From assembly GCF_009931435.1 (NCBI RefSeq), contig NZ_CP043414.1: a stretch of DNA of 64,000 nucleotides; one strand, written 5' to 3'. Of the stretch, positions 27,615 to 56,269 are shown one piece after another. The stretch is from Escherichia coli. Lineage in GTDB: Bacteria > Pseudomonadota > Gammaproteobacteria > Enterobacterales > Enterobacteriaceae. How positions within the stretch are numbered: the first letter of the stretch is position 1; each line of letters starts with the position of its first letter. The notes under the pieces were generated by a model. That model saw nothing but the letters and a program-made list of their open reading frames with translations. It was not told the origin of the DNA and did not search any database. The position numbers were made by a program, and so were the translations under genes.

Positions 27615-27616
27615 CC

Positions 27617-28537: not shown

Positions 28538-28554
28538 TCCACTCCCTGCGTTGC

Positions 28555-30093: not shown

Positions 30094-30112
30094 TTTATTC
30101 TCCGCCTGAATG

Positions 30113-32936: not shown

Positions 32937-33139
32937 AGTATTCGTCCATTAAGGATGGCTCGCCACTTTTGCTATAAATATCAGAATTTTTATGAATTAC
33001 TCATTCAATTTTTGAATATAGAAAGATGGATATGGCATGTAAAGGCAGGAGCCAGCGCTACGCCCGAGGTGGCATACAGTCTGTGGCGTTTTTCTGACAT
33101 AATAGGCAAATTCGATTTTGCCTCCGCAGGAGTGTTTTC

Positions 33140-35124: not shown

Positions 35125-35135
35125 TTGCCAGCCCC

Positions 35136-35220
35136 AGGCCTGATAAGTTGCGACAAGCGTCGCATCAGGCATTTGCTCCAGACGCCAGATGCGGCGTGAA
35201 CGCCTTATCTGGCCTACGGT
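35136..35220. repeat. REP/BIME elements downstream of moeB
   Basis: gcctgataagttgcgacaagcgtcgcatcaggc and gccagatgcggcgtgaacgccttatctggcc, typical REP palindromes. Confidence 0.6.
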
Positions 35221-35302
35221 TCGGGCGCAGATTTCCAGGCGCGGCAAGCGTTGGTGCACTCCACCACGTTATCAGCAATTGATGAGGATGCAGAACGTCC
35301 TG

Positions 35303-35965
35303 TTAAATCGACGTTCTGCCAAAAGCCCCCTGCCAGTCCTGCTCAAACTTCGCCACGGCGGCGTCAACTGCCGGATAGCTAATCATCTGCTGCGCCACAT
35401 CCAGTGGCAGAGTAATTGATTCACATCCTGCCAGTAAGCAGTCCAGCGCCTGACGCGGGGTTTTAAAACTCGCGGCTAACACTTTCGCCTGCGGCGCATG
35501 CATTTTCAATAACTGGTGTAAATCGGTCACAGTTTGCATACCGCTACCGCCCTGAGCATCAATTCGGTTGACGTAAGGTGCAACGTACTCCGCACCTGCC
35601 AGCGCCGACAGCAGCCCTTGTGCCGCGCCATACACTGCCGTACCCAGCGTCGGAATACCTTCTGCTTTTAACATTTTAATAGCAGCCAGCCCCTCGGCAG
35701 TCACCGGAACTTTCACCACGATATCTGCAATAATAGAACGCAGTTTACGTGCATCATTCACCATCCCTTCGGCAGTGGTAGCCATTACCTGGGCAAACAG
35801 ACGCCCCTGACCGCCCATCGCTTCGTGAAGCTCCGGAAGTACCACCTCCAGCGGTTTTTTACCCGCGGCGATAATACTTGGGTTAGTGGTCACACCCGCC
35901 AGCGGAAAAATACGTGACAGTGTCTTCACCGCAACAACGTCTGAAGTATCCAGATACAGTTCCAT
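35303..35965 (-). CDS. fsaA: Fructose-6-phosphate aldolase 1
   Basis: Trimmed to [14 protein letters not shown] (220 aa); transaldolase-like fold. Confidence 0.9.
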
Positions 35966-36095
35966 AACCATCCTCAAAATGTACTTTTTGTCTGAATGTA
36001 GACTATCACGGGAAAACTCTCTGAACAGTTGACGCACATCAATCTAACTTTCATTCGAAAGTATTTTAATGTTTGAACGAAACAGAGAGGCAACT

Positions 36096-36995
36096 ATGAT
36101 TTTCAATATTCAGCGCTACTCGACCCATGACGGCCCCGGTATCCGCACGGTCGTTTTTCTTAAAGGCTGTTCACTGGGCTGCCGCTGGTGTCAGAACCCG
36201 GAAAGCCGCGCCCGCACGCAGGATCTTCTGTATGACGCACGTCTGTGTCTGGAAGGCTGCGAGCTGTGCGCTAAGACCGCGCCGGAAGTGATTGAGCGCG
36301 CGCTGAATGGTTTGCTTATTCATCGGGAAAAGTTAACCCCGGAGCATCTGACGGCGTTAACCGACTGCTGCCCGACACAGGCGTTAACCGTGTGTGGTGA
36401 AGTGAAAAGCGTTGAGGAGATCATGGCGACCGTTCTGCGCGACAAACCGTTTTACGATCGCAGCGGCGGCGGCTTAACGCTTTCCGGTGGTGAGCCGTTT
36501 ATGCAGCCGGAAATGGCGATGGGGCTACTGCAAACCAGCCACGAAGCCGGTATTCATACTGCGGTAGAAACCTGTCTGCATGTGCCGTGGAAATACATCG
36601 CCCCTTCTCTGCCGTATATCGATCTGTTTCTTGCCGATTTAAAACACGTTGCCGACGTGCCGTTTAAACAGTGGACCGACGGTAACGCCGCCAGAGTGCT
36701 GGATAACCTGAAAAAACTCGCAGCGGCGGGGAAAAAAATCATCATCCGCGTGCCGTTGATTCAGGGCTTTAATGCCGATGAAACCTCTGTGAAAGCCATT
36801 ACCGATTTTGCCGCCGACGAGCTGCACGTCGGCGAAATTCATTTCCTGCCCTACCACACGCTGGGCATCAACAAATATCACTTACTTAATCTGCCCTATG
36901 ACGCCCCGGAAAAACCGCTTGATGCGCCAGAACTGCTCGACTTTGCCCTGCAGTATGCCTGCCAGAAAGGGTTAACCGCGACCTTACGAGGATAA
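36096..36995 (+). CDS. ybiY: Glycyl-radical enzyme activating protein YbiY (PflE)
   Basis: [36 protein letters not shown] (radical-SAM CxxxCxxC); 299 aa from the internal start, 308 aa if the upstream ATG at 36069 is used. Confidence 0.85.
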
Positions 36996-37000
36996 CAACC

Positions 37001-39433
37001 ATGACCACACTGAAACTGGACACGCTCAGCGACCGCATTAAAGCGCACAAAAATGCGCTGGTGAATATTGTGAAACCGCCGGTCTGTACCGAGCGCGCGC
37101 AGCACTATACCGAGATGTATCAACAACATCTCGATAAGCCGATCCCGGTACGTCGCGCTCTGGCGCTGGCCCATCACCTGGCGAATCGCACTATTTGGAT
37201 CAAGCACGATGAGTTGATCATCGGCAACCAGGCAAGCAAAGTTCGCGCCGCGCCGATCTTCCCGGAATATACCGTCTCCTGGATCGAAAAAGAGATTGAT
37301 GATCTGGCGGATCGTCCGGGTGCAGGTTTTGCGGTGAGCGAAGAGAACAAACGCGTTCTGCATGAAGTGTGCCCGTGGTGGCGCGGTCAGACGGTACAGG
37401 ATCGCTGCTATGGCATGTTTACCGATGAGCAAAAAGGCCTGCTGGCGACCGGTATCATTAAAGCGGAAGGTAATATGACCTCCGGCGATGCGCACCTGGC
37501 GGTCAATTTCCCACTGTTGCTGGAAAAAGGGCTTGATGGTTTGCGCGAGAAAGTGGCGGAGCGCCGCTCGCGTATTAACCTGACCGTGCTGGAAGATCTG
37601 CACGGCGAGCAGTTCCTGAAAGCGATTGATATCGTGCTGGTGGCGGTCAGTGAACATATTGAACGTTTCGCTGCCCTGGCGCGTGAAATGGCCGTTACCG
37701 AACCCCGCGAAAGCCGTCGCGATGAACTGCTGGCGATGGCCGAAAACTGCGACCTTATCGCCCACCAGCCGCCGCAGACTTTCTGGCAGGCGCTGCAACT
37801 GTGCTACTTCATCCAGTTGATTTTGCAGATCGAATCCAACGGACACTCGGTATCGTTTGGTCGTATGGACCAGTATCTCTACCCGTACTATCGCCGCGAC
37901 GTTGAACTGAACCAGACGCTGGATCGCGAACACGCCATCGAGATGCTGCATAGCTGCTGGCTGAAACTGCTGGAAGTGAACAAGATCCGCTCCGGCTCGC
38001 ACTCAAAAGCCTCTGCGGGAAGTCCGCTGTATCAGAACGTCACCATTGGCGGGCAAAATCTGGTTGATGGTCAGCCGATGGACGCGGTGAATCCACTCTC
38101 TTACGCGATCCTTGAATCCTGCGGTCGCCTGCGTTCGACGCAGCCTAACCTCAGCGTGCGCTACCACGCGGGAATGAGTAACGATTTCCTCGATGCCTGC
38201 GTACAGGTGATTCGCTGCGGCTTCGGGATGCCCGCGTTCAACAACGACGAAATCGTCATCCCGGAATTTATTAAACTCGGTATTGAACCGCAGGACGCTT
38301 ACGACTACGCGGCGATTGGCTGTATCGAAACCGCCGTCGGTGGCAAATGGGGCTATCGCTGCACCGGGATGAGCTTTATCAACTTCGCCCGCGTGATGCT
38401 GGCGGCGCTGGAAGGCGGTCGTGATGCCACCAGCGGCAAAGTGTTCCTGCCACAAGAAAAAGCGTTGTCAGCGGGTAACTTCAACAACTTCGATGAAGTG
38501 ATGGACGCGTGGGACACGCAAATCCGTTATTACACCCGTAAATCAATCGAAATCGAATATGTCGTCGACACCATGCTGGAAGAGAACGTGCACGATATTC
38601 TCTGCTCGGCGCTGGTGGATGACTGCATTGAGCGAGCGAAAAGTATCAAGCAAGGCGGCGCGAAATATGACTGGGTATCGGGCCTGCAGGTCGGCATTGC
38701 TAACCTCGGCAACAGCCTGGCGGCAGTGAAGAAACTGGTGTTTGAACAGGGCGCGATTGGTCAGCAACAACTGGCTGCCGCACTGGCGGATGACTTCGAC
38801 GGCCTGACGCACGAGCAGCTGCGTCAGCGGCTGATTAACGGCGCGCCGAAGTACGGCAACGACGATGATACTGTCGATACGCTGCTGGCTCGCGCTTATC
38901 AGACCTATATCGACGAACTGAAGCAGTACCATAATCCGCGCTACGGTCGTGGTCCGATTGGCGGCAACTATTACGCGGGTACGTCGTCTATCTCCGCTAA
39001 CGTACCGTTTGGCGCGCAAACTATGGCAACGCCGGACGGGCGTAAAGCCCACACCCCGCTGGCAGAAGGCGCAAGCCCGGCTTCCGGTACTGATCATCTT
39101 GGCCCTACTGCGGTCATTGGCTCGGTGGGTAAACTGCCTACGGCAGCGATTCTCGGCGGCGTGTTGCTCAACCAGAAACTGAATCCGGCAACGCTGGAGA
39201 ACGAATCTGACAAGCAGAAACTGATGATCCTGCTACGTACCTTCTTTGAGGTGCATAAAGGCTGGCATATTCAGTACAACATCGTTTCCCGCGAAACGCT
39301 GCTGGAAGCGAAAAAGCATCCGGATCAGTACCGCGATCTGGTGGTGCGCGTAGCGGGTTATTCCGCCTTCTTCACTGCGCTCTCTCCAGACGCACAGGAC
39401 GATATCATCGCCCGTACTGAACATATGCTGTAA
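37001..39433 (+). CDS. ybiW: Glycyl radical enzyme of PFL family, YbiW (PflF)
   Basis: 810-aa; C-terminal glycyl radical motif RVAGYSAFF. Confidence 0.9.
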   Translation: MTTLKLDTLSDRIKAHKNALVNIVKPPVCTERAQHYTEMYQQHLDKPIPVRRALALAHHLANRTIWIKHDELIIGNQASKVRAAPIFPEYTVSWIEKEIDDLADRPGAGFAVSEENKRVLHEVCPWWRGQTVQDRCYGMFTDEQKGLLATGIIKAEGNMTSGDAHLAVNFPLLLEKGLDGLREKVAERRSRINLTVLEDLHGEQFLKAIDIVLVAVSEHIERFAALAREMAVTEPRESRRDELLAMAENCDLIAHQPPQTFWQALQLCYFIQLILQIESNGHSVSFGRMDQYLYPYYRRDVELNQTLDREHAIEMLHSCWLKLLEVNKIRSGSHSKASAGSPLYQNVTIGGQNLVDGQPMDAVNPLSYAILESCGRLRSTQPNLSVRYHAGMSNDFLDACVQVIRCGFGMPAFNNDEIVIPEFIKLGIEPQDAYDYAAIGCIETAVGGKWGYRCTGMSFINFARVMLAALEGGRDATSGKVFLPQEKALSAGNFNNFDEVMDAWDTQIRYYTRKSIEIEYVVDTMLEENVHDILCSALVDDCIERAKSIKQGGAKYDWVSGLQVGIANLGNSLAAVKKLVFEQGAIGQQQLAAALADDFDGLTHEQLRQRLINGAPKYGNDDDTVDTLLARAYQTYIDELKQYHNPRYGRGPIGGNYYAGTSSISANVPFGAQTMATPDGRKAHTPLAEGASPASGTDHLGPTAVIGSVGKLPTAAILGGVLLNQKLNPATLENESDKQKLMILLRTFFEVHKGWHIQYNIVSRETLLEAKKHPDQYRDLVVRVAGYSAFFTALSPDAQDDIIARTEHML

Positions 39434-39572
39434 TCTCCTTCGCCCGGTAACGGTTGTTGCCGGGCGAAAATACTCATCCCATCGATATTATTTTAATCCG
39501 AAATAAATTTGTGCTCCGCGTCACATTGTCATTACACTGTGGCGGTTTGCATTCATTGTCAGGAGCACATCT

Positions 39573-40388
39573 ATGAGCGTAAAAGTTATCGTCACAGACA
39601 TGGACGGTACTTTTCTGAGCGACGCCAAAACGTACAACAATGAGCGTTTTATGGTGCAATATCAGGAACTTAAAAAGCGCGGCATTGAGTTCGTTGTCGC
39701 CAGCGGTAATCAGTATTACCAGCTTATTTCGTTCTTTCCTGAGCTAAAGGATGAGATCTCTTTTGTCGCGGAAAACGGCGCACTGGTTTACGAACATGGC
39801 AAGCAACTGTTCCACGGCGAACTGACCCGACATGAATCAAGAGTTGTCATTGGTGAACTGCTGAAAGACAAGCAGCTCAATTTTGTTGCCTGCGGTTTGC
39901 AAAGCGCGTATGTCAGTGAGAATGCGCCAGAAGCATTCGTCGCGCTAATGGCAAAACACTACCATCGTCTGAAACCTGTGAAAGATTACCAGGATATTGA
40001 TGATGTACTGTTCAAGTTTTCGCTCAACCTGCCTGACGAACAAATCCCGTTAGTGATCGACAAACTGCATATTACGCTCGATGGCATTATGAAGCCCGTC
40101 ACCAGTGGTTTTGGCTTTATCGACCTGATTATTCCTGGCCTGCATAAAGCGAATGGTATTTCGCGGTTACTGAAACGCTGGGATCTGTCACCGCAAAATG
40201 TGGTAGCGATTGGCGACAGCGGTAACGATGCGGAGATGCTGAAAATGGCGCGTTATTCCTTTGCGATGGGCAATGCTGCGGAAAACATTAAACAAATCTC
40301 CCGTTACGCTACCGATGATAATAATCATGAAGGCGCGCTGAATGTGATTCAGGCGGTGCTGGATAACACCGCTCCTTTCAATAAGTAA
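39573..40388 (+). CDS. ybiV: Sugar phosphatase YbiV (SupH), Cof-type HAD
   Basis: [17 protein letters not shown]; 271 aa; paralogous to ybjI in this window. Confidence 0.85.
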
Positions 40389-40539
40389 CCTTTTCCCGGC
40401 CGGAGCAATCGTTCCGGCATCTCTCTTTTTTGCTCACTTTGTGCACTTACTCAAGATTTTCATCTTGCGTTAACTTATTTTTAACTTAAAGTATCAATCA
40501 TAACTATTTTCACTTTCGAACGAAAGTTGTGAGGTTGAT

Positions 40540-41799
40540 ATGACTTTTACCTATGAGACACTGCCAACAGATGCGAAAACGGCTATCCGTAAGATGAAAG
40601 CGGAGCTGCGACAACAGATCGGCGATGTACAACAGGTCTTCGATAAACTCTCTGCAAAAATCGAAGCACGTGTAGCAGAAATAGACGCCCTCAAAGGGCA
40701 AGGATTACCGGTTTGGCCGGAAGTCCCATATAGCGACGTTGCAGCAGGTACAGTGAGTGAAGCCACGCGCAATGAAATTAAACGTCGCGGCTGTGCAGTA
40801 ATTAAAGGCCATTTCCCCCGCGAACAGGCACTGGCATGGGATCGCGCAATGCTTGACTATCTTGATGCCAATCATTTTGATGATGTTTATAAAGGTCCCG
40901 GCGACAGCTTCTTTGGATCGCTGGAGGCATCTCGTCCTGAAATCTACCCTATTTACTGGTCGCAGGCACAAATGCAGGCGCGACAAAGTGACAATATGGC
41001 GGCGCTGCAATCTTTCCTTAACCGCCTGTGGAAGTCTGAAAGCAACGGCAGGCAGTGGTTTGATCCCGATATTAGCGTGATCTATCCGGACAGGATCCGC
41101 CGCCGCCCACCAGGCACGACGTCTAAAGGTCTGGGTGCACACACTGATTCTGGGGCGCTGGAACGTTGGTTATTACCCGCTTATCAGCGTGTTTTTGCCC
41201 ATGTTTTCAACGGTAATGTCGACGATTACGATCCGTGGGATGCTGCATACCGTACTGATGTTGAAGAGTACACGGTAGATAACACCACAAAATGTTCGGT
41301 GTTCCGCACTTTTCAAGGCTGGACGGCGCTTTCCGATATGTTACCAGGACAGGGATTATTGCATGTGGTGCCAATCCCGGAAGCGATGGCGTATGTTTTA
41401 TTGCGCCCACTGCTGGATGACGTACCGGACGATGAGTTGTGTGGGGTCGCTCCTGGCAAAGTTCTGCCCATTTCAGAGAGATGGCATCCACTACTGATTA
41501 AAGCACTCACTTCCATTCCAGCTATTACAGCGGGGGATTCCGTCTGGTGGCACTGCGACGTGATCCACTCCGTCGCACCGGTAAATAATCAACAAGGCTG
41601 GGGGAATGTGATGTATATCCCTGCCGCGCCGATGTGTGAGAAAAACCGGGCTTATGCGCATAACGTCAGGAAAGCACTGGAAAAAGGGGCATCACCGGGC
41701 GATTTCCCTCGAGAAGATTATGAAGCAAACTGGGATGGCCGATTTACGCTGGATGATCTGAACATTCACGGTAAGCGCGCGCTGGGCATGGATGTTTGA
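40540..41799 (+). CDS. ybiU: YbiU (DUF1479 family protein)
   Basis: 419-aa ORF in the conserved position. Confidence 0.8.
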   Translation: MTFTYETLPTDAKTAIRKMKAELRQQIGDVQQVFDKLSAKIEARVAEIDALKGQGLPVWPEVPYSDVAAGTVSEATRNEIKRRGCAVIKGHFPREQALAWDRAMLDYLDANHFDDVYKGPGDSFFGSLEASRPEIYPIYWSQAQMQARQSDNMAALQSFLNRLWKSESNGRQWFDPDISVIYPDRIRRRPPGTTSKGLGAHTDSGALERWLLPAYQRVFAHVFNGNVDDYDPWDAAYRTDVEEYTVDNTTKCSVFRTFQGWTALSDMLPGQGLLHVVPIPEAMAYVLLRPLLDDVPDDELCGVAPGKVLPISERWHPLLIKALTSIPAITAGDSVWWHCDVIHSVAPVNNQQGWGNVMYIPAAPMCEKNRAYAHNVRKALEKGASPGDFPREDYEANWDGRFTLDDLNIHGKRALGMDV

Positions 41800-41884
41800 G
41801 AGGTGATGGATTAGTAGAAGTGAATTGATGTGAGGTTAAGAAAGCAGGTTCGGTGTTGCTCTGATTGCTGACAAAGTGCGCTTT

Positions 41885-42045
41885 GTTCATGACGGATGCG
41901 GCGTTAACGCCTTATCCGGTCTACAAAGTCCTGAAAATTCAATATATTGCGATACGCTGTCAGGCCTGATAAGCGTAGCGCATCAGGCAATTTTGCATTT
42001 GTCATCAGTTTCAGTAGCCCTGACCCTATCAGGGCTACTGATAAT
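41885..42045. repeat. REP elements plus an 11-bp-stem hairpin between ybiU and ybiT
   Basis: cggatgcggcgttaacgccttatccggtctac, ctgtcaggcctgataagcgtagcgcatcaggca and agtagccctga-ccctat-cagggctact. Confidence 0.6.
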
Positions 42046-44837: not shown

Positions 44838-45956
44838 CTACCAGGCCGGGAGCATAACGAATAAAACGTATCCCACCAGCGCCGCCCACAACAGCATCGG
44901 TATCGAATAAAGATGAAAACGCCACCAGATACGGCGATCGTTCGCCATCCGTAATGCAATCAAATTTGCCAGCGATCCGGGTAATAAACCAAAGCCACCG
45001 ACGTTTACCGCCCATGCCAGTAATAAAGACGGTGGCACATAATTGAGGAGCAAAATCGTGCTCGGCACATTACTGATCACCTGCGATAAACCAATTGCCG
45101 TTAACCATAATCCGGGTTCGGATAAATGGCTCACATTGCTCAACACGCCCTGCAAAGCTGGCAGTTGGGTCAGCAAATGGACGTCGATAAACATCGCCAT
45201 AAATACCAGCAGCAGCGTCCAGTCCACGCTGATCACCACGCGACGAGCCAGCAGCGCAAAGCCCGCCGCTACAATCACCAGTCCCCACAGCTCTTGTTTT
45301 AACTCCAGCGCCGTCAGAAAGACGATATACAGCCCCAGACAACTCCACACCAGCCGCGGTTTCCACTCAGGTGTTTGCGCCCCCGTATGATATTGCAGCG
45401 CCTTTCCAGGGAAACAACACCAGCACAGTAGCAGGAGTGTCAGCATCATTGCGCCAGCCAGCGGTGCCATTTGGGCAATAAACCCGGCAAACGAAAGACC
45501 AGAACGACCCCAGATAAGAATATTTTGCGGGTTGCCAATCGGCGTCAGTAGCGAACCCGCATTGACTGCCAGCGCCTCAAAAATAATCAGTCGATTAACC
45601 GGGATCTCACACAGTCTTTTTAGCGTGATGGTCAGCGGAACAACTATAAACAGCGCGACATCGTTGGTCAGAAAGGTAGAAAGTAGCGCCGCCGCCAGCA
45701 CCATAAACATCGCCAGCCGTCGCTCCGTAGCAAAGCGGCGCACCATTTTGCGCCCCAGCACATCAAAATAACCGCTTAACTCCACACCTTTGGTCAGCAG
45801 CATCAGACCGCTTAAGGTGATGATGGTGTGCCAGTCGATAGCAGCAGGCCAGGATTTCGGTGCAAAGGGAACAAAAAAACTTAATCCGATGCCAACAAGA
45901 ATTAATAACTGAAAAAAACGATCGCCTTGCAGCGTGCGTAAAAAAGGCAGGCTCAT
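44838..45956 (-). CDS. ybiR: Putative anion transporter YbiR
   Basis: 372-aa polytopic membrane protein. Confidence 0.85.
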
Positions 45957-46420
45957 TTGGCACCGTGTTTCTGGGTAAACAAACGAAAGGCATCCAGCGT
46001 CTCTTCACTAACATGGTGCTCCATGCCTTCCGCGTCGCGACGGGCGATTTCCGGACTGACGCCCAACACCAACAAGAAATTTTCGACTATCTGATGTCGC
46101 TCGCGGCTTTCCTGCGCCAGTTTCTCTCCTTCTGCCGTTAAAAACACGCCACGCCAGGGGATCATTTCAATCAGCCCCATGGTTGCCAGTCGTTTGAGCA
46201 TTTTAGCCACCGTCGGTTGCGAAACGCCCAGACGAGCAGCCATGTCCACCTGACGAGCTTCCCCCACTTCCCTGATCAAGTCAGAAATCAGCTCAACGTA
46301 ATCATCAATAAGCTCGCGCCGGTGTGCCTCTCTGACCTGGCGGAACCCTTCAACGTGCTCTTCCACATTCACTAACTGCGTCACTTTTTTTGCTGTTGGC
46401 GTACCTGCGCGACGACTCAT
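45953..46420 (-). CDS. mntR: Manganese-responsive transcriptional regulator MntR (DtxR family)
   Basis: 155-aa [43 protein letters not shown]; 4-nt overlap with ybiR. Confidence 0.9.
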
Positions 46421-46511
46421 TGTGCTTCCTCATTATGGTGACGCATACATAGCGTTCTCATTTCGTGCGCACATTGTAAACCAGAGTTGCGAAGGTACAA
46501 AAAATTAACGT

Positions 46512-46546
46512 TTTAGCAATAGCTATATAATATAGCCATTGCTAAA
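46512..46546. promoter_or_regulatory. 35-bp near-perfect palindrome about 95 bp upstream of mntR; candidate operator
   Basis: tttagcaatagctatat-a-atatagccattgctaaa, 17-bp arms with one mismatch, read directly; centre is TATA-rich. Confidence 0.4.
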
Positions 46547-46824
46547 TACATAAAATCAAATAAAATCATAATGTTAACAAAACAAAAAAAATAATCAATG
46601 TCGCAAAAATGTCTCACAAAACAAAAGCCATAACTTATTTGCTTGTTTTTTTATAGTGTCAGTATTAATCTAGTATATCAAAATGTTATCACTTCAATTA
46701 TTCTCTGCTTAACATTTATTTAAGAAATAATATTTTTAAGCTCTTTAAAAAAACCTTAAATAACGCTGATAGTTTCTTAGGAAAACTTAACGATAGTGGT
46801 AAATTAATCCCAAAGGACTAAAAA

Positions 46825-48060
46825 ATGGTATTAAGTAACTGTATTCAATGTCAGTCATGCAAATTTATATATAGAGTTAGGGTTGGTATTGGGTTTGATA
46901 AATACCAAAGACATTATATGGACTGTTTTGAGTGTAATATTCCTATTGTTTTTGCTATACGAACAGACCCACCAAATGCTTATCTTGAAGCGGAAGAAAA
47001 CTGCCTAATTGTTGAACATAGTACAGACCACAAGGTTGTTAACTTCCATCCGGGATGTGCTTTTAATAAAGATGAGATACATCAGTCACTGATATTCCCA
47101 TCTATTGAATTGACACAAATGATTCATAAACATATGAGGATGCCGAAAGGACAACGCCTTATAAGTGCCTCTCATCAATTTGATATTCCCAACGCCCCCT
47201 CCAAATGGAATTATTTAAAATCAATAATAAAACTTATTAATGAAGGAAAGAAAGACAAAGCTCAGAATACAGCAAAGCTTTATATGCAATCAAGAAATAA
47301 AGAGTTACCTTTGTATAATGAAGATGATAGCTATTCCTCTACATCTCTAATCTATGAGTTTTTAGATTGGCTTTTCTATCCTCGAGTACATGATATAGCC
47401 GATTCCATTAAAAAAACAATTGATGACCTTAAAGAACAAAATTTGTTGGATGATTTTTACGCTTTCTATAAAGAAAATTTAAAATCCGAAAATGAACAAA
47501 GATACATCAATATAATATCAGATTTCATGGCTCGTAGAGATCATTTCGGGCAGTTAATCTATTACGCAAGAATTAACAACGATGCAATAGACGATAAGAT
47601 AATTAGCTCTAAGAACTTCGATAATGTAAGAAATTATTATGGAGATGCTTATGAAAGTCTGACATCTAACATGACTATTTTAGCATGTATTAATAACATC
47701 GTCAGTGGAAGGGCATTCGATCAGTTCAAGCAAATGACATTGAATAAATACATAAAGGATGTAAATAAAGACAGTAAAACAAACCCATTTAAGGACAACC
47801 CTTTATTTAGCGCATTTTGTGAAGATGATTTAGAGTCAGCAATAAGAAATGGTTCTCATCATGCCTCTATATGGCATGACGGAGAGAGTATTCGATATAG
47901 AAGTGGCGGAACTGGCGCAGAAAGAGAAATAAGCTATACAAAATATATTCACCTTTGTAATAAGCTAACTCTTAAAATCGTAAGTTTGTGGTTAATTGAA
48001 CTTCATATCCAACATATTTACGAAAAAGATGATAATAGCTATGCATGGTTTCATCTTTAA
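46825..48060 (+). CDS. Hypothetical protein, 411 aa, AT-rich cargo gene with N-terminal Cys cluster (possible zinc ribbon); function unknown
   Basis: Long ORF with AAGGA RBS 8 nt upstream of ATG; sampled lines are about 28-37 percent G+C versus about 50 percent in flanking genes; N-terminus CIQCQSC...CFEC; rest rich in K/N/D/E/Y; no family recognised by eye. Confidence 0.6.
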   Translation: MVLSNCIQCQSCKFIYRVRVGIGFDKYQRHYMDCFECNIPIVFAIRTDPPNAYLEAEENCLIVEHSTDHKVVNFHPGCAFNKDEIHQSLIFPSIELTQMIHKHMRMPKGQRLISASHQFDIPNAPSKWNYLKSIIKLINEGKKDKAQNTAKLYMQSRNKELPLYNEDDSYSSTSLIYEFLDWLFYPRVHDIADSIKKTIDDLKEQNLLDDFYAFYKENLKSENEQRYINIISDFMARRDHFGQLIYYARINNDAIDDKIISSKNFDNVRNYYGDAYESLTSNMTILACINNIVSGRAFDQFKQMTLNKYIKDVNKDSKTNPFKDNPLFSAFCEDDLESAIRNGSHHASIWHDGESIRYRSGGTGAEREISYTKYIHLCNKLTLKIVSLWLIELHIQHIYEKDDNSYAWFHL

Positions 48061-48116
48061 GTTAAATATTTGATTCACTAATTTTCAGTTTCTACTCACT
48101 CTAATGATTGTACATA

Positions 48117-48143
48117 GCCCGCACCATTCTTGGTATTGCGGGC
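48117..48143 (+). terminator. Weak hairpin downstream of the 411-aa gene
   Basis: gcccgca-13 nt loop-tgcgggc followed by ttt. Confidence 0.3.
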
Positions 48144-48553
48144 TTTCAGCCGTTTATATCACTTAACGCAATTAGATCATGCAACTTTACACAATATGGT
48201 TTTTTCTATTATTTTTCAGTTGGTTGAATGGATTAGCCATCACACAACTGATCTATAAAACTGAAAAACACTGAAATTCTTTTCAATCTTTTCAGTGGCA
48301 GCTCTCCGGCAAACCGCCAACAGTGGCGCAGCCTGACGCTCACGTTTGTAGAAAAATAAAACTGAAAAATTTTATCGATCCAGAAACCGCAGGCGGGTGC
48401 GGTGTAGTGCCATTTTGGTCTGCGAAAGATTTATTTTGTCAGTGCGTAGTGCCGTCAGCGCAACGTGACAGCACAGATCCTTTTGTGGTGTTACGGGATG
48501 GTGGTCAGAGAAAAAAAGTGCTTAGAATGCTTCTGGTTGCGTGAGAATACAGG

Positions 48554-48579
48554 TATAAAAAACCCGCACTAGGCGGGTA
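48554..48579 (-). terminator. Rho-independent terminator of the 84-aa gene (minus strand)
   Basis: Plus strand reads aaaaaa-acccgc-actag-gcgggt; on the minus strand this is a perfect 6-bp GC stem followed by a T-run, directly after the ORF stop. Confidence 0.55.
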
Positions 48580-48589
48580 CTAAAGAGAG

Positions 48590-48844
48590 CTATTTCATTT
48601 CGTTAAGTGCGTACGCACCTCTATCAGTGAGTGCAAAAAAGCCATCCCTTACGCTGGGTTGAATCAACCCAAACATACGCAATTCACCCAGTATTTGTTC
48701 TGAGCGACTACCAGCACCAGAATGCTTAATTAGTGCAAATTCAGGCTGTGCTTCTTCACTGAGCAAAGTCAATATTTTGACAATGGCGTCACGTTTGCTT
48801 TCATCTGCAATGTCATGGTATGGATTGATGGAACAGGTTACCAT
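48590..48844 (-). CDS. Hypothetical small protein, 84 aa, monocistronic
   Basis: ORF MVTCSINPYHDIADESKRDAIVKILTLLSEEAQPEF... bounded by terminator-like hairpins on both sides; separate transcription unit from the tail operon. Confidence 0.45.
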   Translation of the reverse strand: MVTCSINPYHDIADESKRDAIVKILTLLSEEAQPEFALIKHSGAGSRSEQILGELRMFGLIQPSVRDGFFALTDRGAYALNEMK

Positions 48845-48984
48845 AGTGTTTTCCTTTTTTTATGAAAATCATATTTTACCATATCCCAACACGCCATATT
48901 GAAGTGCTCAATATTCACTCACCCTAAAAGGTATCTGTTGTGCAATCAGTTCCCCTACTCCCAGGTATCGCGGTTAAACAGGTA

Positions 48985-49010
48985 TCAAAAAGCCGCATTA
49001 TGCGCGGGCT
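48985..49010 (-). terminator. Candidate terminator of the prophage tail operon
   Basis: Imperfect GC hairpin (gcccgcgcataatgcggc on the minus strand) followed by a T-run, a few bases after the stop of the 567-aa gene. Confidence 0.4.
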
Positions 49011-49020
49011 GATGGGATGA

Positions 49021-50724
49021 TCAGGCGATGATTTTCTGGTACTTACTTCGGGTCTGTCCTGCTTTCTCTGCTGTCTGGGTAAATGCTCCGGCATTGGTTG
49101 GCGTACCAACACTGGGGTGCGAATGACTCGCACATTGCTGCGCCAGCTCTGCCAGTAAATCAATGGTGTCCAACATCATGGTCAGCGTGTTTACACTCTC
49201 ACTGCCGATATGGATGGTTGGCCCCATAATCTGCTGACCGCCCGATGCTACCGATTTGCGTAATGCAGTAATCTTTTCAGTCAGGCTTTCGCCAACCTCC
49301 ACGGCTACAGCACCGCCCACTTTAATGGACTGCTGTCCTGCTATGTCCGTTTCTTCGTTTCCTTCAATGCTGGCCAGCCTGTTACCTTTCACGGCCTGGC
49401 TAAAATCCCCGGCACTGACCTGCTGAATGGCTCCGGCTAGCAGGGTGGCGGTCCCCACCACAATGGTTTTATCCGTGGCTTTAACCGTGGTTTCGCGACT
49501 GACCAGATCACGTTGTTCTGTATCTGCTTTTACCGTTCGCACCATCGATGTTTCACTGATGGTCTGATCGGTCTGCCTTACCCAGTCACCCGCCAGAGTC
49601 ACCCTCTGGGATACTTCTTCCCGCTGCTGCTGCAATTGCTCACCGGGTTTAACGTCCGGCAGACTGGTGCCATCCGGTAGCGTCTGCCTGATAAAAGGTT
49701 TATCCGGTCTGCCTCCTGTGAATGCGACCTCAACCAGCGTCCCTTCTGGCGGGAACTGAAACATACCTGAATCATTCCCGGCCATTGGTACCGGCAGCGG
49801 CACCGCTGAATAAACAGGCGTCTGATTGTCCGGATTTCCGTCTGCGTCAAGCAGCTGCACGTCCACGGCGTAACGTGGCCGGAAGGGATCGGCAAAGTTA
49901 CCGCTTTTTACCGGCTCTGAATGCGCCACGACTCTGGCCATCTTTGGCAAATGAAGCCCGGATGCCAGTTCCGGGTAATGGCTTTCAATCTGCCGTTGCG
50001 CTGGTGTTTTCTGCAAAGGTTTACCCGTTGCGCGGTTTCTCGGCGTCCATGTGATCGCCATCGTGTCATTAGTCAGGTGAACTTTAGTCACGCGTTCACC
50101 GTTCATCTCCACCCCTGGCCGCATAGTCTGGATCACTGGTAATGTCACAGAGTTACCGCCAGCAGCCCCCTGGCTGAACTCTGACGGGATTTCTACTGGA
50201 CGACCGGCAAACAATGACTTTTCTGCGCCGCCGACGTAAAGCGAACCATCAGGTAACTGGTACCAGATGTAATCCTGGATACTGAACGCCCTGCCCAGAT
50301 TGTTCAGCAACTGATAACCAGTACCGTTATGGGTAAAATGTGGGATGGGGGTATCGCTGTACTGTGCATCAGGCACACTGACCGTGATCCCGCTGTTTTC
50401 TTCCAGCCAGCCCGCAATTTCACGCAAAGTCGGGTGTTGAAACGAACATGGCCACATCCTTTCAAACACACCTACCAGCTCACGAATGAATAGGCGCTGA
50501 AAACCGTTTTCAGCGGGCTGCGATCGCTCCACATACCCCGTAAACCAGCGCAAAAGCAGATCGGTATACCCCACATCCAGCCGCACCAGTTTTCCGGTGT
50601 AATCGGTTGTTGTCTCTGCGGTGATGAAGCCCCGGCCGCAGCTGTTCAGCTCCAGTACCAGGCTGACATCCACCAGGTGAACTTCATCCGTTGAAAGGTA
50701 AAGACGTTTTACTGGTTTCATCAT
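49021..50724 (-). CDS. Phage baseplate hub/spike protein (gpD/VgrG-like), 567 aa
   Basis: Last gene of the tail operon; C-terminal third is a low-complexity V/T/G/S-rich repeat region typical of beta-helical spikes; call is by architecture and context only. Confidence 0.5.
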   Translation of the reverse strand: MMKPVKRLYLSTDEVHLVDVSLVLELNSCGRGFITAETTTDYTGKLVRLDVGYTDLLLRWFTGYVERSQPAENGFQRLFIRELVGVFERMWPCSFQHPTLREIAGWLEENSGITVSVPDAQYSDTPIPHFTHNGTGYQLLNNLGRAFSIQDYIWYQLPDGSLYVGGAEKSLFAGRPVEIPSEFSQGAAGGNSVTLPVIQTMRPGVEMNGERVTKVHLTNDTMAITWTPRNRATGKPLQKTPAQRQIESHYPELASGLHLPKMARVVAHSEPVKSGNFADPFRPRYAVDVQLLDADGNPDNQTPVYSAVPLPVPMAGNDSGMFQFPPEGTLVEVAFTGGRPDKPFIRQTLPDGTSLPDVKPGEQLQQQREEVSQRVTLAGDWVRQTDQTISETSMVRTVKADTEQRDLVSRETTVKATDKTIVVGTATLLAGAIQQVSAGDFSQAVKGNRLASIEGNEETDIAGQQSIKVGGAVAVEVGESLTEKITALRKSVASGGQQIMGPTIHIGSESVNTLTMMLDTIDLLAELAQQCASHSHPSVGTPTNAGAFTQTAEKAGQTRSKYQKIIA

Positions 50725-51269
50725 TAATCCAAAGCATCATTGACGGGCTTCAGCACCTTGCGTTCAAACCACGTCAGTTTTTCTTCATCCTCTCCGGCAG
50801 ACTGGCCACCGAACTGCCCCGCACTACCGGCAGTCTGTTTTTTTGCGGTCGTCTTACCTGTTGCCCTGGCCTCTCGCTTTTCCTGCACGCTGATATGTTC
50901 AGCCAGTGTGAATGTCACCAGCCAGGACATTTTCCCGTCCTGCTGGGGCGCATCCAGCATTCCGCTGAACGTTGCTTCACGAAAATTAACAGCACGGGCA
51001 ACTTCATGCGCCACGCGGTACTTCTGACGATTACCACTGGCATCGGTAGCACTGGCCAGCTCAAAAATACGCTTCAGTATTTCAGGCTGTTTAAAAGGTA
51101 TTTCACCGCTGATCCGCAGTTCCTTTCCCTTTGCTCCCTGCTCTGATTTTGTTGTGGCACTGGTCTGGCCGGACTGATCTTTATCCTGAAATTGCTGTGA
51201 AACAGTCACCCGCATGTTTTTCAGCTGGATGGCCTCGCCATTAAGCGCCAGTGTCGGGATCGAAGTCAT
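50724..51269 (-). CDS. Phage tail-associated protein, unknown function (181 aa)
   Basis: ORF translationally coupled (ATGA overlap) to the hub gene; no family recognised. Confidence 0.4.
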   Translation of the reverse strand: MTSIPTLALNGEAIQLKNMRVTVSQQFQDKDQSGQTSATTKSEQGAKGKELRISGEIPFKQPEILKRIFELASATDASGNRQKYRVAHEVARAVNFREATFSGMLDAPQQDGKMSWLVTFTLAEHISVQEKREARATGKTTAKKQTAGSAGQFGGQSAGEDEEKLTWFERKVLKPVNDALD

Positions 51270-52002
51270 GAATCATTCCCTTTATTCCATCAAGATTATC
51301 GCCAACCAGCATCATGGCTGCGGTGTAAACGGCAGACTGCTGCGGAATGTCCTTCACCAGTTCCAGTAACGTTGTGCCGGTGTCTCCGCTGGCAGTAAAA
51401 ACCCACGCTCTGGCACTCTTCCCCTGTAAGTCATTCAGGCCGCTGGCCACATCACTGATAAGCTGGTCACGCAGCTGCGTGAACTCGCCCAGCTGTTTTT
51501 TCAGCCCTTCGATATCAAATCCGGCACCCGCCACCTTTTGTGCCTGGTTGATTGCCGCAGCAGATAAAGCTGCCCTGCTGGTTGGTACAGACAGTGGAAT
51601 GGACGCAGGTAACGCTGCGGCGGTTTTCGCCGGGATCTGCATCTTTTCAATAGCCAGCGCTGCGGCGGATTGCGCCAGCCGTTTTACCTGCGTGAATGCC
51701 GGGGCGGGGAAAATCCCGACCAGGTTATTCAGGCTGGCCATAAAGTTTTCCTGCGTCTGTCCGGTGACCATCATAATCACCACGTCCACATTCCCCCCAG
51801 TTCCGGCCAGGCGTTCAGCAAGATAGCGAACAGCATTAACCGGGCTGAGATATGCCCCGTTCGCTGTCTGCTGTCCCAGCCCATAAATCCACGGATGCGC
51901 AGGGACGATCGAACAGTTCAGCGCAGCAACAGAATCCGTGAAGGCCAGACGTGCTTCACGCCACATTTCCAGGCACCTCCGGCCACACAATTTCCGGCGC
52001 AT
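51241..52002 (-). CDS. Phage tail-associated protein, unknown function (about 240-253 aa)
   Basis: Ala-rich ORF overlapping both neighbours in the tail operon; true start may be the internal MWREARLAF. Confidence 0.4.
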   Translation of the reverse strand: MRRKLCGRRCLEMWREARLAFTDSVAALNCSIVPAHPWIYGLGQQTANGAYLSPVNAVRYLAERLAGTGGNVDVVIMMVTGQTQENFMASLNNLVGIFPAPAFTQVKRLAQSAAALAIEKMQIPAKTAAALPASIPLSVPTSRAALSAAAINQAQKVAGAGFDIEGLKKQLGEFTQLRDQLISDVASGLNDLQGKSARAWVFTASGDTGTTLLELVKDIPQQSAVYTAAMMLVGDNLDGIKGMIHDFDPDTGA

Positions 52003-52543
52003 CTTCCGCTTGAATACGATTCAGTAAAACGCGGTATTTTTTCCATGCGGTAAGTAACAATGTTTCTTCCTGGCTCGCCATGCCTAAAACAACAGCATCC
52101 TGCAATGTGGCAATGGCAGTATGGGCCTGTTTAAGCAGTCTTATCTTTTCCAATTCTGCCTCACGGGTTAATGCAACTCGCATAGACTCAGCATCATCCT
52201 CCCATTTACTGCCATTCCATTTTTGCCATGCGTTTTCAGGCTCCAGAGTAGTTGTTCCAGCTGGATAATCCCCTGGTGCTGTTATCACGAACCTTCTAGC
52301 GTCTTTCGTATCAAATACAATTTCGCCACGGTGATCTTTAATAGCAATCCATTTCTGTTTTTCTGTATTAAAAATTGCCACGAATCCGTCTTTTGTTAAT
52401 GGAGGTTTAATTGTGGTGCAATTGGCTGGTAGTCCTGTGTGAGCGGGAATAAAAGCGTTATCACTACCAATAAACTCATTCGTCTCAGAATGAAGTTTAT
52501 AAACAGTAACTGTTTGATCGATATCACTCATTTTAAATATCAT
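51956..52543 (-). CDS. Tail fibre assembly protein (Tfa/Mu U-like)
   Basis: [43 protein letters not shown]... and C-terminal EETLLLTAWKKYRVLLNRIQAEDAPEIVWPEVP closely resemble K-12 cryptic-prophage Tfa proteins. Confidence 0.8.
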   Translation of the reverse strand: MIFKMSDIDQTVTVYKLHSETNEFIGSDNAFIPAHTGLPANCTTIKPPLTKDGFVAIFNTEKQKWIAIKDHRGEIVFDTKDARRFVITAPGDYPAGTTTLEPENAWQKWNGSKWEDDAESMRVALTREAELEKIRLLKQAHTAIATLQDAVVLGMASQEETLLLTAWKKYRVLLNRIQAEDAPEIVWPEVPGNVA

Positions 52544-54150
52544 TAAGCGAGTCTCACGATATAGTTTAATGCAATGTTTTTAACAGTGTTTTCTGAAGTA
52601 CCCGCAGCATTAACCGTAATGGTGTGTCCATGCGAACCAATCGCAACAGAGTGCGTATGAGCACCAATACCGACAGTATGTTTATGCTCCCCAGCACTTG
52701 CTGCAGTACCTGATACCGAGTGGGTGTGTGCGCCCGCAGAATTCGTTGCACCTAAGTGAGTTTGAGCAGAGTTCGACGAAGCTACTCTACCGGAGCTAAC
52801 GTTAGCATTATCTCCCTGAGATATCGGATGTGTATGTGCACCTGCTGAAGCAGCTGTTCCGCTAACACTATGGGTATGAGCACCAGTGTTATTCGTAGAT
52901 TTAGTTCCATAATCAAACGATGATGTGGTTTTTGTCCCTAAATCGGTATTTGAGGCACTGGCGCTATGGGTATGTGACTTAATATTATCCTGTTCATAAG
53001 ATAATACGGCACGTCCGCTGTTAGGCTTACCTTTAATCGTCTGCCCGCGCATATCAGGAATAACACCCAATGGATACGCAGCAGCCAATAATGGATATAC
53101 TGCCTTATCAAAAGACTGCCCCTGCATAATTGCCCAGCCAGGAGGTGGAATATCTGCTGGCCATGGAAGTGGAACACCAACCGGCAGAACATCACTACGA
53201 CTTAAAACGGCCAGTTCACCCAGCTCCAGGCTTTTTCTTGCTTTCACCTTGTCGCTAACATCAGCAAGGTTTGCATCCTTACGCAAAAAATCGCTGCTGG
53301 CCTGCTGTTCTCCCAGGCTACCCTTTGGCCGTAAATCCGTGATGTTGCCATCCGCATCAATGCTGGCCACAGCAAACACATAATGCTGAACCCCGTTCTG
53401 AACATAATCAGCAAGATTTGCTGCCACCGTGATTTTGCTCTGCACATTCCAGACACTGGTCAGTGTCCCTGTCCAGCACACATCCAGCCAGACTTTTACC
53501 GGCTTTGTCGTTACCGTAATATTCTGATTCGCAGCCAGTGACGCACGAAGTCCAGCCACATACCCCGTGCCTTTCGTGACAAAAAACTGATTGCCGGTTT
53601 TGGCTACCAGATACCCGTTACCAAAAAACGCCGCCGCGCCATAAATATCCATATTTTCCAGGCGCTGGCGTTCATCCATTCCGGCCAGACGTGCAGTAAA
53701 ATCAATCTGCCATGTTTCAGCGGGTGTATTAATCCCGGTTTCCGTTTGTGCGCCATTGTACTCCATCAGAAACGAGCGGGTCAGCACGTTCCCCTGTTGA
53801 CCTTCTTTTGTTTTCAGTTTCTGCTGTGATGGTGCATGGACAATCATTGCCAGCGTACCGCTGGCCTTATTGAGCAGACCGATCCAGTTAAAACTGAAAT
53901 CACCCACATCTGCGCCCAGCACTACGGAATAGACCACACCGTTTTCATCCACCACACCGGTGCGGGTAACAGACTGCCGGTGAACAATCTGTGCAGCCGG
54001 TGGTAATGTTTCATTGCGGTCAACAGGTGTATCCGGGTTTAAATCCGGCACACTGGCAAAAACAAATTCATCCAGTAGTACCGGTTCACCCGTTGCGCCC
54101 TGCTGCGCTTTCCAGTTTTCAAACGCCAATGTGATGGCTGTCTGTGACAT
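52543..54150 (-). CDS. Tail fibre protein (gpH / side-tail-fibre family) with His-rich receptor-binding tip
   Basis: 535-aa; C-terminus ...[23 protein letters not shown]...[63 protein letters not shown] matches the conserved Stf/Mu-S type C-terminal domain. Confidence 0.8.
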
Positions 54151-54160
54151 AAAAACCTCC

Positions 54161-54754
54161 TTACAAACTCGCGCTGAATGTTGCGCTGCGGGCTTCCGTC
54201 CCTGCTAACGTCGCCGGGTAAACCACATATTCCCCCTGACCCCACCCGGCCCTGATAACCAGGCTTTCAGGCGTGATCACCTCAAACTGATAACGGCGGC
54301 ATGTTCGCCCGTACTGGCGGATTATCTGGATCAGCAGCTGCGTGTTGTCTGCAATCTGGCTGTCTGTAACCCGAACCAGAATCACATCCCAGTCGATATC
54401 CGGTTGCCGTTCGAACAGCTCCACATAACCAATTCCCAGCCGTTCAAAGATATTGATAAACCCCTCAACTGAACCAGCATCCCGCGCATTCACGAAGGCA
54501 AAAGCCACACGTTTGCGGAACAGGGTCAACGGTTCACCATCAAAGCGGGTGATATCCCGGTCATAAGCCAGCAGGTTCAGTAATGCCGGTGTACACGTCA
54601 GCGGATCAAACTGATTCATTGGCCAGGTAATCCAGCCGTAAACCTCAGCCCAGAACCGCCGCGCCGTTTTCAGCAATTTCCCCGGTTCGCCTTTATTCAT
54701 CCAGGACGGCAGGAACATCCCGGCCAGCTTTTTCATGAACTCATTCATTCTCAA
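54161..54754 (-). CDS. Phage tail protein I-like (baseplate component)
   Basis: 197-aa ORF between the J-like and tail-fibre genes; [11 protein letters not shown] motif resembles gpI-family proteins. Confidence 0.55.
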
Positions 54755-55925
54755 TATTCACCGTCAGTGATTTCAGACGCGGCACGCTCAGTTCACTGGT
54801 AATGTCTCCCAACGAAAATGTCAGTGATTCCGTCTGTGCAAAGGTTTTATGAATTTCCCGCCCCAGTTGCGAAAAGGAAAACCGCGAATATGGCCACGTC
54901 TTTCTGACGTCATAATCAGCATTTTCACGAAAGGCACAGCGGATCATGTTTTCAATGCCGCCCTTCAGCGTTTTCACCTCTTCGTCACTGAAGTTGTTCA
55001 GATTTTTGACATAAACTGTGACGGCCAGATCGTGAAGAGTTTCCGGCATGGGATAGCACTGCATATCATCACCATGCCCGTGGTGCCCCAGCGTGTTGAT
55101 ATAGTCATTCACCGCATCCACGAACGGCGCTGATGCCACCCCACTGTCCAGTAATAAAAAGGCGTTGGCTGTTCCTGGCCCCCTCGGTGCTTCATGCTCA
55201 AAGAAAATCCGATCGATACTCAACCCGGCAACACTGGCGATCATTGAGCGATAAACCGCATCAGTGTGGTAATTCCCCACCAGATTGAACTGATTGCGGC
55301 AACGCTCGCGCAATTCATCATCACTTTCCTCGTCAGCCCCCGGCACTGTCAGCCAGTTTTCCTCACTGGCCACATGGCTGATACCACTGACCGCCATCGG
55401 CAGAATGCGGTAATATCCGGGCGCAAGGTTATATGCGCCCCCGGTGCCAGTGGCTTTCACCGGCAGTAATGCGCTGGCCGCGCCGGAAGCGATCACCACA
55501 TCCTCAGTGGTGGCCAGCTCATACACTCGCCCGTTAATGCGTTCTGTCTGGATAACCGTCCCGGCGTTGACCGTCACAACGGCCTTTGCATCTTCTTTGA
55601 AGAACCGAATAACCCCCTGCGCAGCGCTCGCTGGTTTTGCCGTGACGTTCACCGCCCATGCCAGCAAACGCAACATGCTCCCGCTGGCTGTGGCCACAAA
55701 CATATTGGCCAGCACGGTTAACACCAGAACGTCTTTAAGCCACATCACCGGGGCGGTCACAATGGCGGTGATTAATCGCCAGAACGGTGACATTCGGGAT
55801 GTATTGGTGATAATTCCCTCATCTGCTGCAATTGCATTGAAGCGTTCCCGCACTTCGGCTTCCGTTACCGGCATACCGCTGTCTTTCACCACTTCTTCAA
55901 AATCAACCTGCGGTTTTTCCGTCAT
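54741..55925 (-). CDS. Baseplate J-like protein (gpJ/gp47 family)
   Basis: Start placed at MTEKPQVDFEEV, which forms an ATGA overlap with the upstream W-like gene; size and position typical of baseplate J. Confidence 0.7.
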   Translation of the reverse strand: MTEKPQVDFEEVVKDSGMPVTEAEVRERFNAIAADEGIITNTSRMSPFWRLITAIVTAPVMWLKDVLVLTVLANMFVATASGSMLRLLAWAVNVTAKPASAAQGVIRFFKEDAKAVVTVNAGTVIQTERINGRVYELATTEDVVIASGAASALLPVKATGTGGAYNLAPGYYRILPMAVSGISHVASEENWLTVPGADEESDDELRERCRNQFNLVGNYHTDAVYRSMIASVAGLSIDRIFFEHEAPRGPGTANAFLLLDSGVASAPFVDAVNDYINTLGHHGHGDDMQCYPMPETLHDLAVTVYVKNLNNFSDEEVKTLKGGIENMIRCAFRENADYDVRKTWPYSRFSFSQLGREIHKTFAQTESLTFSLGDITSELSVPRLKSLTVNIENE

Positions 55926-56269
55926 AAATCCACCTGCGCAGAGATCCCGCCAAAATCGTATGTACTCGCGGTTACCCACAACCGCTTCTGACTTTCTTCA
56001 CTGATTTCCACCGTACCCGGCACAATGCGTTCATCATCTTCAATCAGTAATTCCATGCGGGTAAAAATATCCGCTCTCATTGTCGGGCTACGTTCGGCAA
56101 TTAATTCCGTCGCTAACCCACTTTCAATAATGGAATGAATAATGTCCTGCCCGATACTTTTTCGGTTATTACATAATTCAGGTTCATTACCGGTATTCAG
56201 AACAAAGTCACCGCCCTGAATCAGCAAATCGATATAAAGAACATCACTCATGCGCCAAGCTCCTGCCAT
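55922..56269 (-). CDS. Baseplate W-like (gp25-like) small protein, 115 aa
   Basis: Size and position immediately upstream of the J-like gene; assignment by context. Confidence 0.45.
   Translation of the reverse strand: MAGAWRMSDVLYIDLLIQGGDFVLNTGNEPELCNNRKSIGQDIIHSIIESGLATELIAERSPTMRADIFTRMELLIEDDERIVPGTVEISEESQKRLWVTASTYDFGGISAQVDL

Follow-up and report, generated by a model that had tools for sequence, protein, structure and literature searches.

In Escherichia coli K-12 MG1655 the small-protein gene mntS (b4705) lies inside rybA (b4416), adjacent to mntR and divergent from it. Manganese-loaded MntR dimers at the mntS operator block RNA polymerase, and Waters, Sandoval & Storz 2011 reportedly mapped the MntR site at mntS. 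Repression of mntS by manganese-bound MntR has been described (Martin et al. 2015, PMC4361602; PMC9806134). In the RefSeq annotation the 5' end of rybA is placed at 853064, 118 bp from the mntR ATG, and across the operator the K-12 sequence reads ...AACGTTTTAGCAATAGCTATATAATATAGCCTGTGCTATATCTGTATG... in the orientation used here. The native operator consists of two abutting 18-bp units, box 1 (TTTTAGCAATAGCTATAT) and box 2 (ATATAGCCTGTGCTATAT), with a single A between them; relative to the rybA 5' end box 1 covers approximately -28 to -11 and box 2 covers -9 to +9, the two together reaching from about -28 to +9. The TATAAT hexamer at -13 to -8 lies 7 nt upstream of the annotated 5' end. The second group of systems relevant to this locus is formed by the P2-like phages P2, 186 and HP1, the attachment sites of which have a short common core and arm-type Int sites, with int located beside attP.

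We analyzed a window of 64 kb (64,000 nucleotides) of E. coli DNA where a palindrome upstream of mntR is very probably the left attachment junction (attL) of a P2-like prophage, which would have been integrated by its tyrosine integrase at the mntS promoter and within the tandem MntR operator. As in P2, 186 and HP1 a tyrosine integrase adjoins the site, a short core is embedded in imperfectly similar flanks, a motif is repeated on both arms, the gene order is that of the Peduoviridae, and cargo is carried beside the att site. Unlike P2, which uses the intergenic locI, and unlike 186 and HP1, which use a tRNA gene, the element here targets the operator and -10 region of a gene for a small protein. 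Both this operator and the way it is regulated are already known, and short-core integration of a P2-like phage is an ordinary event; the mntS promoter as attB is a new site, and our literature search found no description of the mntS promoter or the MntR operator in this role.

In the window mntR is encoded on the minus strand at positions 45953 to 46420 (155 aa; every matching E. coli genome has it annotated as mntR) and is followed by ybiR at 44838 to 45956. A repeat search returned two palindromic arms, 46512-46528 (TTTAGCAATAGCTATAT) and 46530-46546 (ATATAGCCATTGCTAAA), which are complementary at 16 of 17 positions around a spacer of 1 nt, the sole mismatched pair being A46521 and C46537. 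When the 64 kb were scanned for 17-nt arms with loops of 0 to 5 nt, 46512-46546 was the only 16/17 palindrome, and such a palindrome was found in 0 of 100 dinucleotide-preserving shuffles of the window. The first-pass annotation of this DNA had pointed to a near-perfect palindrome with 17-bp arms and a single mismatch about 95 bp upstream of mntR, and had suggested that it could be an MntR box. The palindrome is indeed real and unique in the window, and it does lie upstream of mntR, at a distance that we measure as 91 nt from its start to the ATG; the suggestion of an MntR box is supported by a motif scan, which found two ATAGC-N4-GCTAT boxes here, as at mntH and mntP.

The 35-bp palindrome (46512-46546) is made up of box 1, a central A (46529) and a hybrid box that we call box 2'. 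Box 1 (TTTTAGCAATAGCTATAT, 46511-46528) is entirely host DNA, is identical to K-12 and invariant across genera, and matches the motif ATAGC-N4-GCTAT at 9 of 10 positions. Box 2' (ATATAGCCATTGCTAAAT, 46530-46547) consists of host or core DNA from 46530 to 46537 and of phage DNA from 46538 onwards, and also scores 9/10. In K-12 the motif occurs once in the mntH promoter (10/10, as AAACATAGCCTTTGCTATGTTT), twice upstream of mntP (9/10 and 10/10), and twice at mntS (10/10 and 9/10, with centres 19 bp apart), where native box 2 is a perfect 7-4-7 inverted repeat that accounts for the 10/10 match. The mntH sequence is said to be the reverse complement of the MntR site in Patzer & Hantke 2001. Six sites in the 64-kb window score at least 9/10, and two of these six are box 1 and box 2'. 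The double box has hardly changed in E. fergusonii, Salmonella and two Citrobacter, with the DNA nearer to mntR diverging. We take both boxes as the putative MntR operator on the basis of motif recurrence and cross-genus conservation. Like the MntR operators of mntH, mntP and mntS in E. coli, the site is a 7-4-7 inverted repeat; it lies over the mntS promoter with mntR adjacent, and its box 1 is that of K-12. Unlike the native mntS operator, it has a chimeric box 2 (9/10 against 10/10) and a higher symmetry (16/17 against 13/17), and the controlled gene is not found downstream: the promoter and operator have remained beside mntR while mntS has been moved off.

The chimeric nature of the palindrome follows from the alignment with K-12, to which the window is identical base for base from mntR through 46537, with unrelated prophage DNA from 46538. 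At this position 5421 of 5426 complete E. coli genomes match the window only to approximately 46547, and MFDS1016424 alone matches throughout. The host and core part of the palindrome comprises box 1, the central A and ATATAGCC (46530-46537); ATTGCTAAA (46538-46546), the 9 bp at the outer end of the right arm, belongs to the P' arm of the phage. The sequence TATAATATAGCC (46526-46537), situated in the -10 region of mntS, is the same in attL of the window, in attR of MFDS1016424 and in attB of K-12, and is therefore assigned as the common core. Because the K-12 identity ends at 46537 and the core is shared with the far end of the prophage, we read the palindrome as attL. Right attachment in MFDS1016424 reads ...GTTAATGCTT-TATAATATAGCC-TGTGCTATATCTG...mntS and, in a longer reading, ...GTAGATAGTTAATGCTT-TATAATATAGCC-TGTGCTATATCTGTATG...ATGAATGAG (mntS). 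The two copies of TATAATATAGCC are 30,869 bp apart in that genome, which by collinearity would place the window's own attR near 77,400, beyond the window.

The mntS gene is missing from the window. A tblastn search of the 64 kb with the 42-aa MntS protein, which is identical to the K-12 translation, gave a best E-value of 0.5, and no MntS-like reading frame was present among the ORFs of at least 20 aa between 45000 and 48500. Several expectations of the first-pass annotation can be judged from this comparison. It had failed to find an mntS frame, and there is no intact mntS in the window. It had expected mntS with an MntR-bound promoter next to mntR, which is right about the adjacency in K-12 and wrong about the orientation, the two genes being divergent and not co-directional. 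Its proposal that the palindrome is part of the insertion junction agrees with the K-12 alignment, where identity ends inside the right arm at 46537. Where it had the prophage displacing or disrupting mntS, only displacement holds, as mntS is intact in every lysogen examined, and its alternative, that it had the local arrangement wrong, gives way to the displacement supported by K-12 and MFDS1016424. Finally, it had named the reference strains as a check on the palindrome; their native operator has it in a poorer form (13/17 against 16/17), the right arm here owing its outer 9 bp to the phage.

The first 17.5 kb of the prophage, which continues past the window end, are covered by the window from 46538 to 64000 and carry cargo, tail-fibre, baseplate, tail, lysis and head genes of a Peduoviridae (P2-like, Quadragintavirus-like) element. 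Genome MFDS1016424, the nearest to the window, is collinear with positions 41962-64000 at 99.1-99.4% identity and has a prophage of 30.9 kb that separates mntR from mntS, the latter being intact. Reading from mntR, this prophage has a gene for a 411-aa hypothetical protein, followed by tail-fibre, baseplate, tape-measure, lysis, sheath and head genes, and then by terminase, portal, ogr-like, replication endonuclease, cII, cI and tyrosine integrase genes; beyond it lie intact mntS, opgE and ompX. The integrase of 351 aa has the Pfam domains Int_N (E 5e-31) and Phage_integrase (E 2e-24), and approximately 1 kb separates its gene from attR in MFDS1016424; in most other lysogens the gene lies approximately 170 nt away from mntS. 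Six of the 29 lysogens, including MFDS1016424 (L003, 9876-10457), carry an extra gene between the integrase gene and attR, encoding a hypothetical protein of 193 aa with no Pfam match and only a marginal PHROG match, which may mark a second small cargo slot. Structural genes are approximately 95% identical to those of the Escherichia phages ESSI2_ev129 and ev040 (Quadragintavirus) across 10 kb, and the element resembles ESSI2_ev129, ev040 and ev015 in its tail, lysis and head genes at this level of identity and in its genome organisation. It differs from these three phages in the integrase and attachment module and in the cargo: its integrase shares only 51% identity with the integrase of ESSI2_ev129 and ev040, two phages that lack the TATAATATAGCC core, and the integrase/attP module had no megablast match in 50,697 phage records.

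The first prophage gene at attL, located at 46825 to 48060 on the plus strand, encodes an uncharacterised cargo protein of 411 aa and is co-directional with the mntS promoter left behind at this junction. The slot beside attL (46538-48300 in the window; loci L006-L009 and L019-L022) is a variable cargo hotspot, which in other lysogens is filled with an AAA ATPase and a serine acetyltransferase, an AIPR protein, an ATPase together with STAS-like and PIN proteins, DUF6680 and DprA, a reverse-transcriptase-domain protein, DUF6338, or other hypotheticals. Among 9 distinct lysogen arrangements, 7 have their first cargo gene in the direction of the stranded mntS promoter, and no terminator is predicted between this promoter and the cargo gene.

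On the other side of mntR the collinearity with MFDS1016424 ends at approximately 41950-41962, the position of a frameshifted IS621 that MFDS1016424 carries between ybiU and ybiT, and a 15/17 palindrome (AGTTTCAGTAGCCCTGA...TCAGGGCTACTGATAAT) is found at 42007-42045 beside the break (window 41948-42045). Positions 27554-41948 of the window (gsi, moe and ybiW-ybiU) are only 96% and 89% identical to MFDS1016424, compared with 99% for the segment from mntR into the prophage. This would mean either that the history of the prophage region is distinct from that of the backbone, or that the host lineage is divergent; the collection contains no complete E. coli genome that matches the entire window.

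To see how widely the site is used we turn to the distribution of the two halves of the junction. A contiguous mntS-mntR site is present in 5392 of 5421 complete E. coli genomes, and the P arm of the phage is found beside mntS at 96-100% identity in exactly 29 genomes, the same number as lack the contiguous site. The four integrases that were compared are 96% identical, and the four attR junctions compared are essentially identical. Some elements are remnants: that of PSS-07 (L013) has been reduced to 8.5 kb, keeping the integrase, cI, cII, early genes and cargo while the structural genes are gone, and that of strain 573 (L008/L014) to approximately 13 kb. A Citrobacter amalonaticus genome has the same attR. 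In IMG/VR, 16 contigs are of the attR type, and in some of them the mntS leader is unlike that of E. coli. A further IMG/VR contig of 29.6 kb (L038) has the P arm, the core and P'-like sequence contiguous, as attP would be; over the 32 nt past the core that were compared, its P'-like part resembles attL of SC477. Two of the three matches in the genome-contig search, to a Spirochaete MAG and to Frischella, were dismissed as chance matches of AT-rich sequence.

Further observations concern the two arms. On the AT-rich P' arm of attL (46538-46824) the sequence ATGTCGCAAAAATGTC at 46598-46613 has a single occurrence in the window, at 60 bp from the core, and the P arm has a near copy at 93 bp, beside the integrase gene (L003 10713-10734, MFDS1016424); we regard both as candidate arm-type integrase sites, and most of the other attL junctions have a similar repeat. 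The break falls after TATAATATA(GC) in each of the ten attL junctions examined, and TATAATATA (46526-46534) is the minimal core over these ten lysogen junctions. The core-proximal stretch of about 25 nt of the P' arm (46538-46562) is hypervariable across the attL junctions, among elements with integrases that are 96% identical where compared, and the remaining arm including ATGTCGCAAAAATGTC is approximately 78% conserved. The junctions also differ in score: the palindrome reaches 13/17 in native attB, 16/17 in attL of the window and 10-14/17 in the nine other lysogen junctions, and the motif score of box 2' is 9/10 in the window against 4-8/10 in the other lysogens.

In the explanation that we favour, the crossover took place within TATAATATAGCC, in the -10 region of the mntS promoter and in the middle of the pseudo-palindromic operator. 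At attL mntR has kept box 1 beside it, together with the -10 hexamer and the inner half of box 2, while phage DNA takes the place of the outer half of box 2 and in this phage happens to complement box 1, giving the 16/17 palindrome and the 9/10 box. The mntS promoter stranded in this way faces the prophage cargo gene. The right junction of the window is predicted to consist of TATAATATAGCC-TGTGCTATAT and an intact mntS, approximately 30.9 kb to the right of 46526 and following int and the P arm; judging from the genome that is 99% collinear, the window's own mntS is most likely intact about 31 kb away, beyond the window. The attR of MFDS1016424 keeps the native box 2, the TATAAT, the transcription start, the 5' UTR and the mntS ORF, and has the -35 region and box 1 replaced by P-arm DNA with an 8/10 box mimic in the same register. 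With these elements in place mntS at attR is most likely still expressed and repressible by manganese through box 2, in an altered upstream context that may affect promoter function. The arrangement resembles that of tRNA-targeting phages and of phage 21 in icd, where phage sequence keeps the target usable, in that the -10 hexamer, the start and box 2 are regenerated at attR. It differs in that the rebuilt part is a 5' regulatory end and not the 3' end of a coding region or tRNA, and in that the -35 region and box 1 are rebuilt only loosely, with an 8/10 mimic of the box, such that regulation may change. The dyad symmetry of the operator together with its strong conservation may be what makes it a suitable attB. 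The comparisons establish the sequence anatomy, the junctions, the core, the distribution and the conservation; binding of MntR, promoter activity at attL and attR, and the place of the window's own attR are inferred.

The promoters around the junction were considered separately. TATAAT at 46526 to 46531 on the plus strand is assigned as the -10 hexamer of the mntS (rybA) promoter from its position in K-12, and would now be directed into the prophage. In none of K-12, attL and attR was the mntS promoter picked up by a sigma-70 consensus scan, because its -35 is weak, and since the scan is blind to this promoter even in K-12 it is no judge of promoter retention. For mntR itself, the block CATTGTAAACCAGAGTTG (46472-46489), which separates it from the operator, shows no change across E. 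coli, E. fergusonii, Salmonella and two Citrobacter, in contrast to the variable intergenic DNA around it. Read on the opposite strand, the block includes TTTACA, a possible -35 of mntR or part of a site for another regulator; if this block, on the mntR side of the junction, is the mntR -35, integration would leave mntR unaffected. K-12 also has a promoter-like site facing mntR, ATTACA-18-TATATT, that straddles the att core (L001 5046-5075 on the plus strand, corresponding to about 46529-46558 on the minus strand in the window), and no equivalent of it is found in the window. It was set aside as the mntR promoter with a score of only 9/12; if it were real, the prophage would take away its -35. 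Rfam scans of the junction region and of the K-12 rybA locus returned no relevant family, and RybA had no match to an Rfam model.

Integration as such accounts for a hybrid box, and leaves unaccounted for the finding that the phage bases 46538-46546 complement 46512-46520 at nine of nine positions, those of the box spacer included. The chance of this complementarity is about 1.7e-5 from local composition. Specificity of the integrase was rejected as the cause of the perfect right arm: the other lysogens compared have a 96%-identical integrase and unrelated sequence at these positions, which means that integrase specificity does not require the 9/9 match. Template switching, selection and chance are all candidate explanations. 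We consider it possible, if rather unlikely, that a quasi-palindrome at attL was "corrected" by intramolecular template switching during replication, such that the complement of box 1 was copied into the outer 9 bp and subsequently became phage-borne. In favour of such a copying event, the complementarity extends over spacer bases that are needless for a repressor half-site, the nine other junctions have unrelated sequence there and score 10-14/17, and the core-proximal part of the P' arm is hypervariable. Against it, the internal mismatch 46521/46537 was left as it is and no intermediate sequence was found among the junctions compared; moreover, the P' arm of this type is known in two sequences only, the window and MFDS1016424, and the direction of change can therefore not be read from them. 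Selection for a second MntR box, or chance, could also have produced the match. A bolder reading, which we regard as distinctly doubtful, is that the phage has been wired into the manganese regulon of the host, either with the attL promoter, furnished with box 1 and box 2', driving the cargo gene when manganese is scarce, or with Mn-MntR on the boxes over the crossover core at attL and attR hindering Int and Cox so that excision becomes manganese-responsive. If this were true, the near-perfect reconstruction of the box would be selected and not accidental.

Other readings of the palindrome were weighed against site-specific integration. That it is a regulatory site of the phage, a repressor operator or a core site for Cox or Int with a merely coincidental likeness to an MntR box, appears very unlikely to us. 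Tyrosine integrases do need inverted core-type sites flanking the crossover, and attP has a weak dyad symmetry about the same centre, but the best conserved part of the palindrome is host DNA that is present in phage-free genomes and conserved in Salmonella and Citrobacter, its motif recurs at mntH and mntP, and lysogens with a shared integrase differ freely in the phage-side half. This reading is partly compatible with the palindrome being attL, since Int must also bind here. The terminator scan offered another role, an RNA hairpin on the minus strand with a stem of 16 pairs (46546 to 46512) followed by ACGTTAATTT, which as an intrinsic terminator would halt transcription leaving the prophage before it reaches mntR. 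With only 4 of 16 pairs being G-C, a poor T-run in ACGTTAATTT, most of the stem being a DNA motif conserved in genera free of the prophage, and no such hairpin in the other lysogens or in the K-12 scan nor any Rfam match, we find this role highly improbable. Hardly credible, finally, is a purely native host operator from which mntS was lost or moved by an unrelated insertion or deletion that was not site-specific. Host DNA does make up the left arm and 8 nt of the right one; the last 9 nt, however, are unlike every unoccupied E. coli site, both ends of the prophage carry a copy of a 12-bp core adjacent to which a tyrosine integrase is encoded, and 29 genomes as well as Citrobacter share the break point.

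With integration at the mntS promoter as the preferred reading, the apparent loss of a gene is explained, in that mntS was most likely relocated by approximately 31 kb and not deleted. For annotation the locus carries the caveat that a striking palindrome can be a chimera made by integration and not a native operator. A conserved promoter and operator is identified as the attachment site for a family of P2-like elements, which occupies it in about 0.5% of complete E. coli genomes (29/5421) and also in Citrobacter. Splitting of a metal-responsive promoter in this manner means that lysogens may have altered MntS expression, and as MntS inhibits the manganese exporter MntP, the handling of manganese could change in these lysogens.
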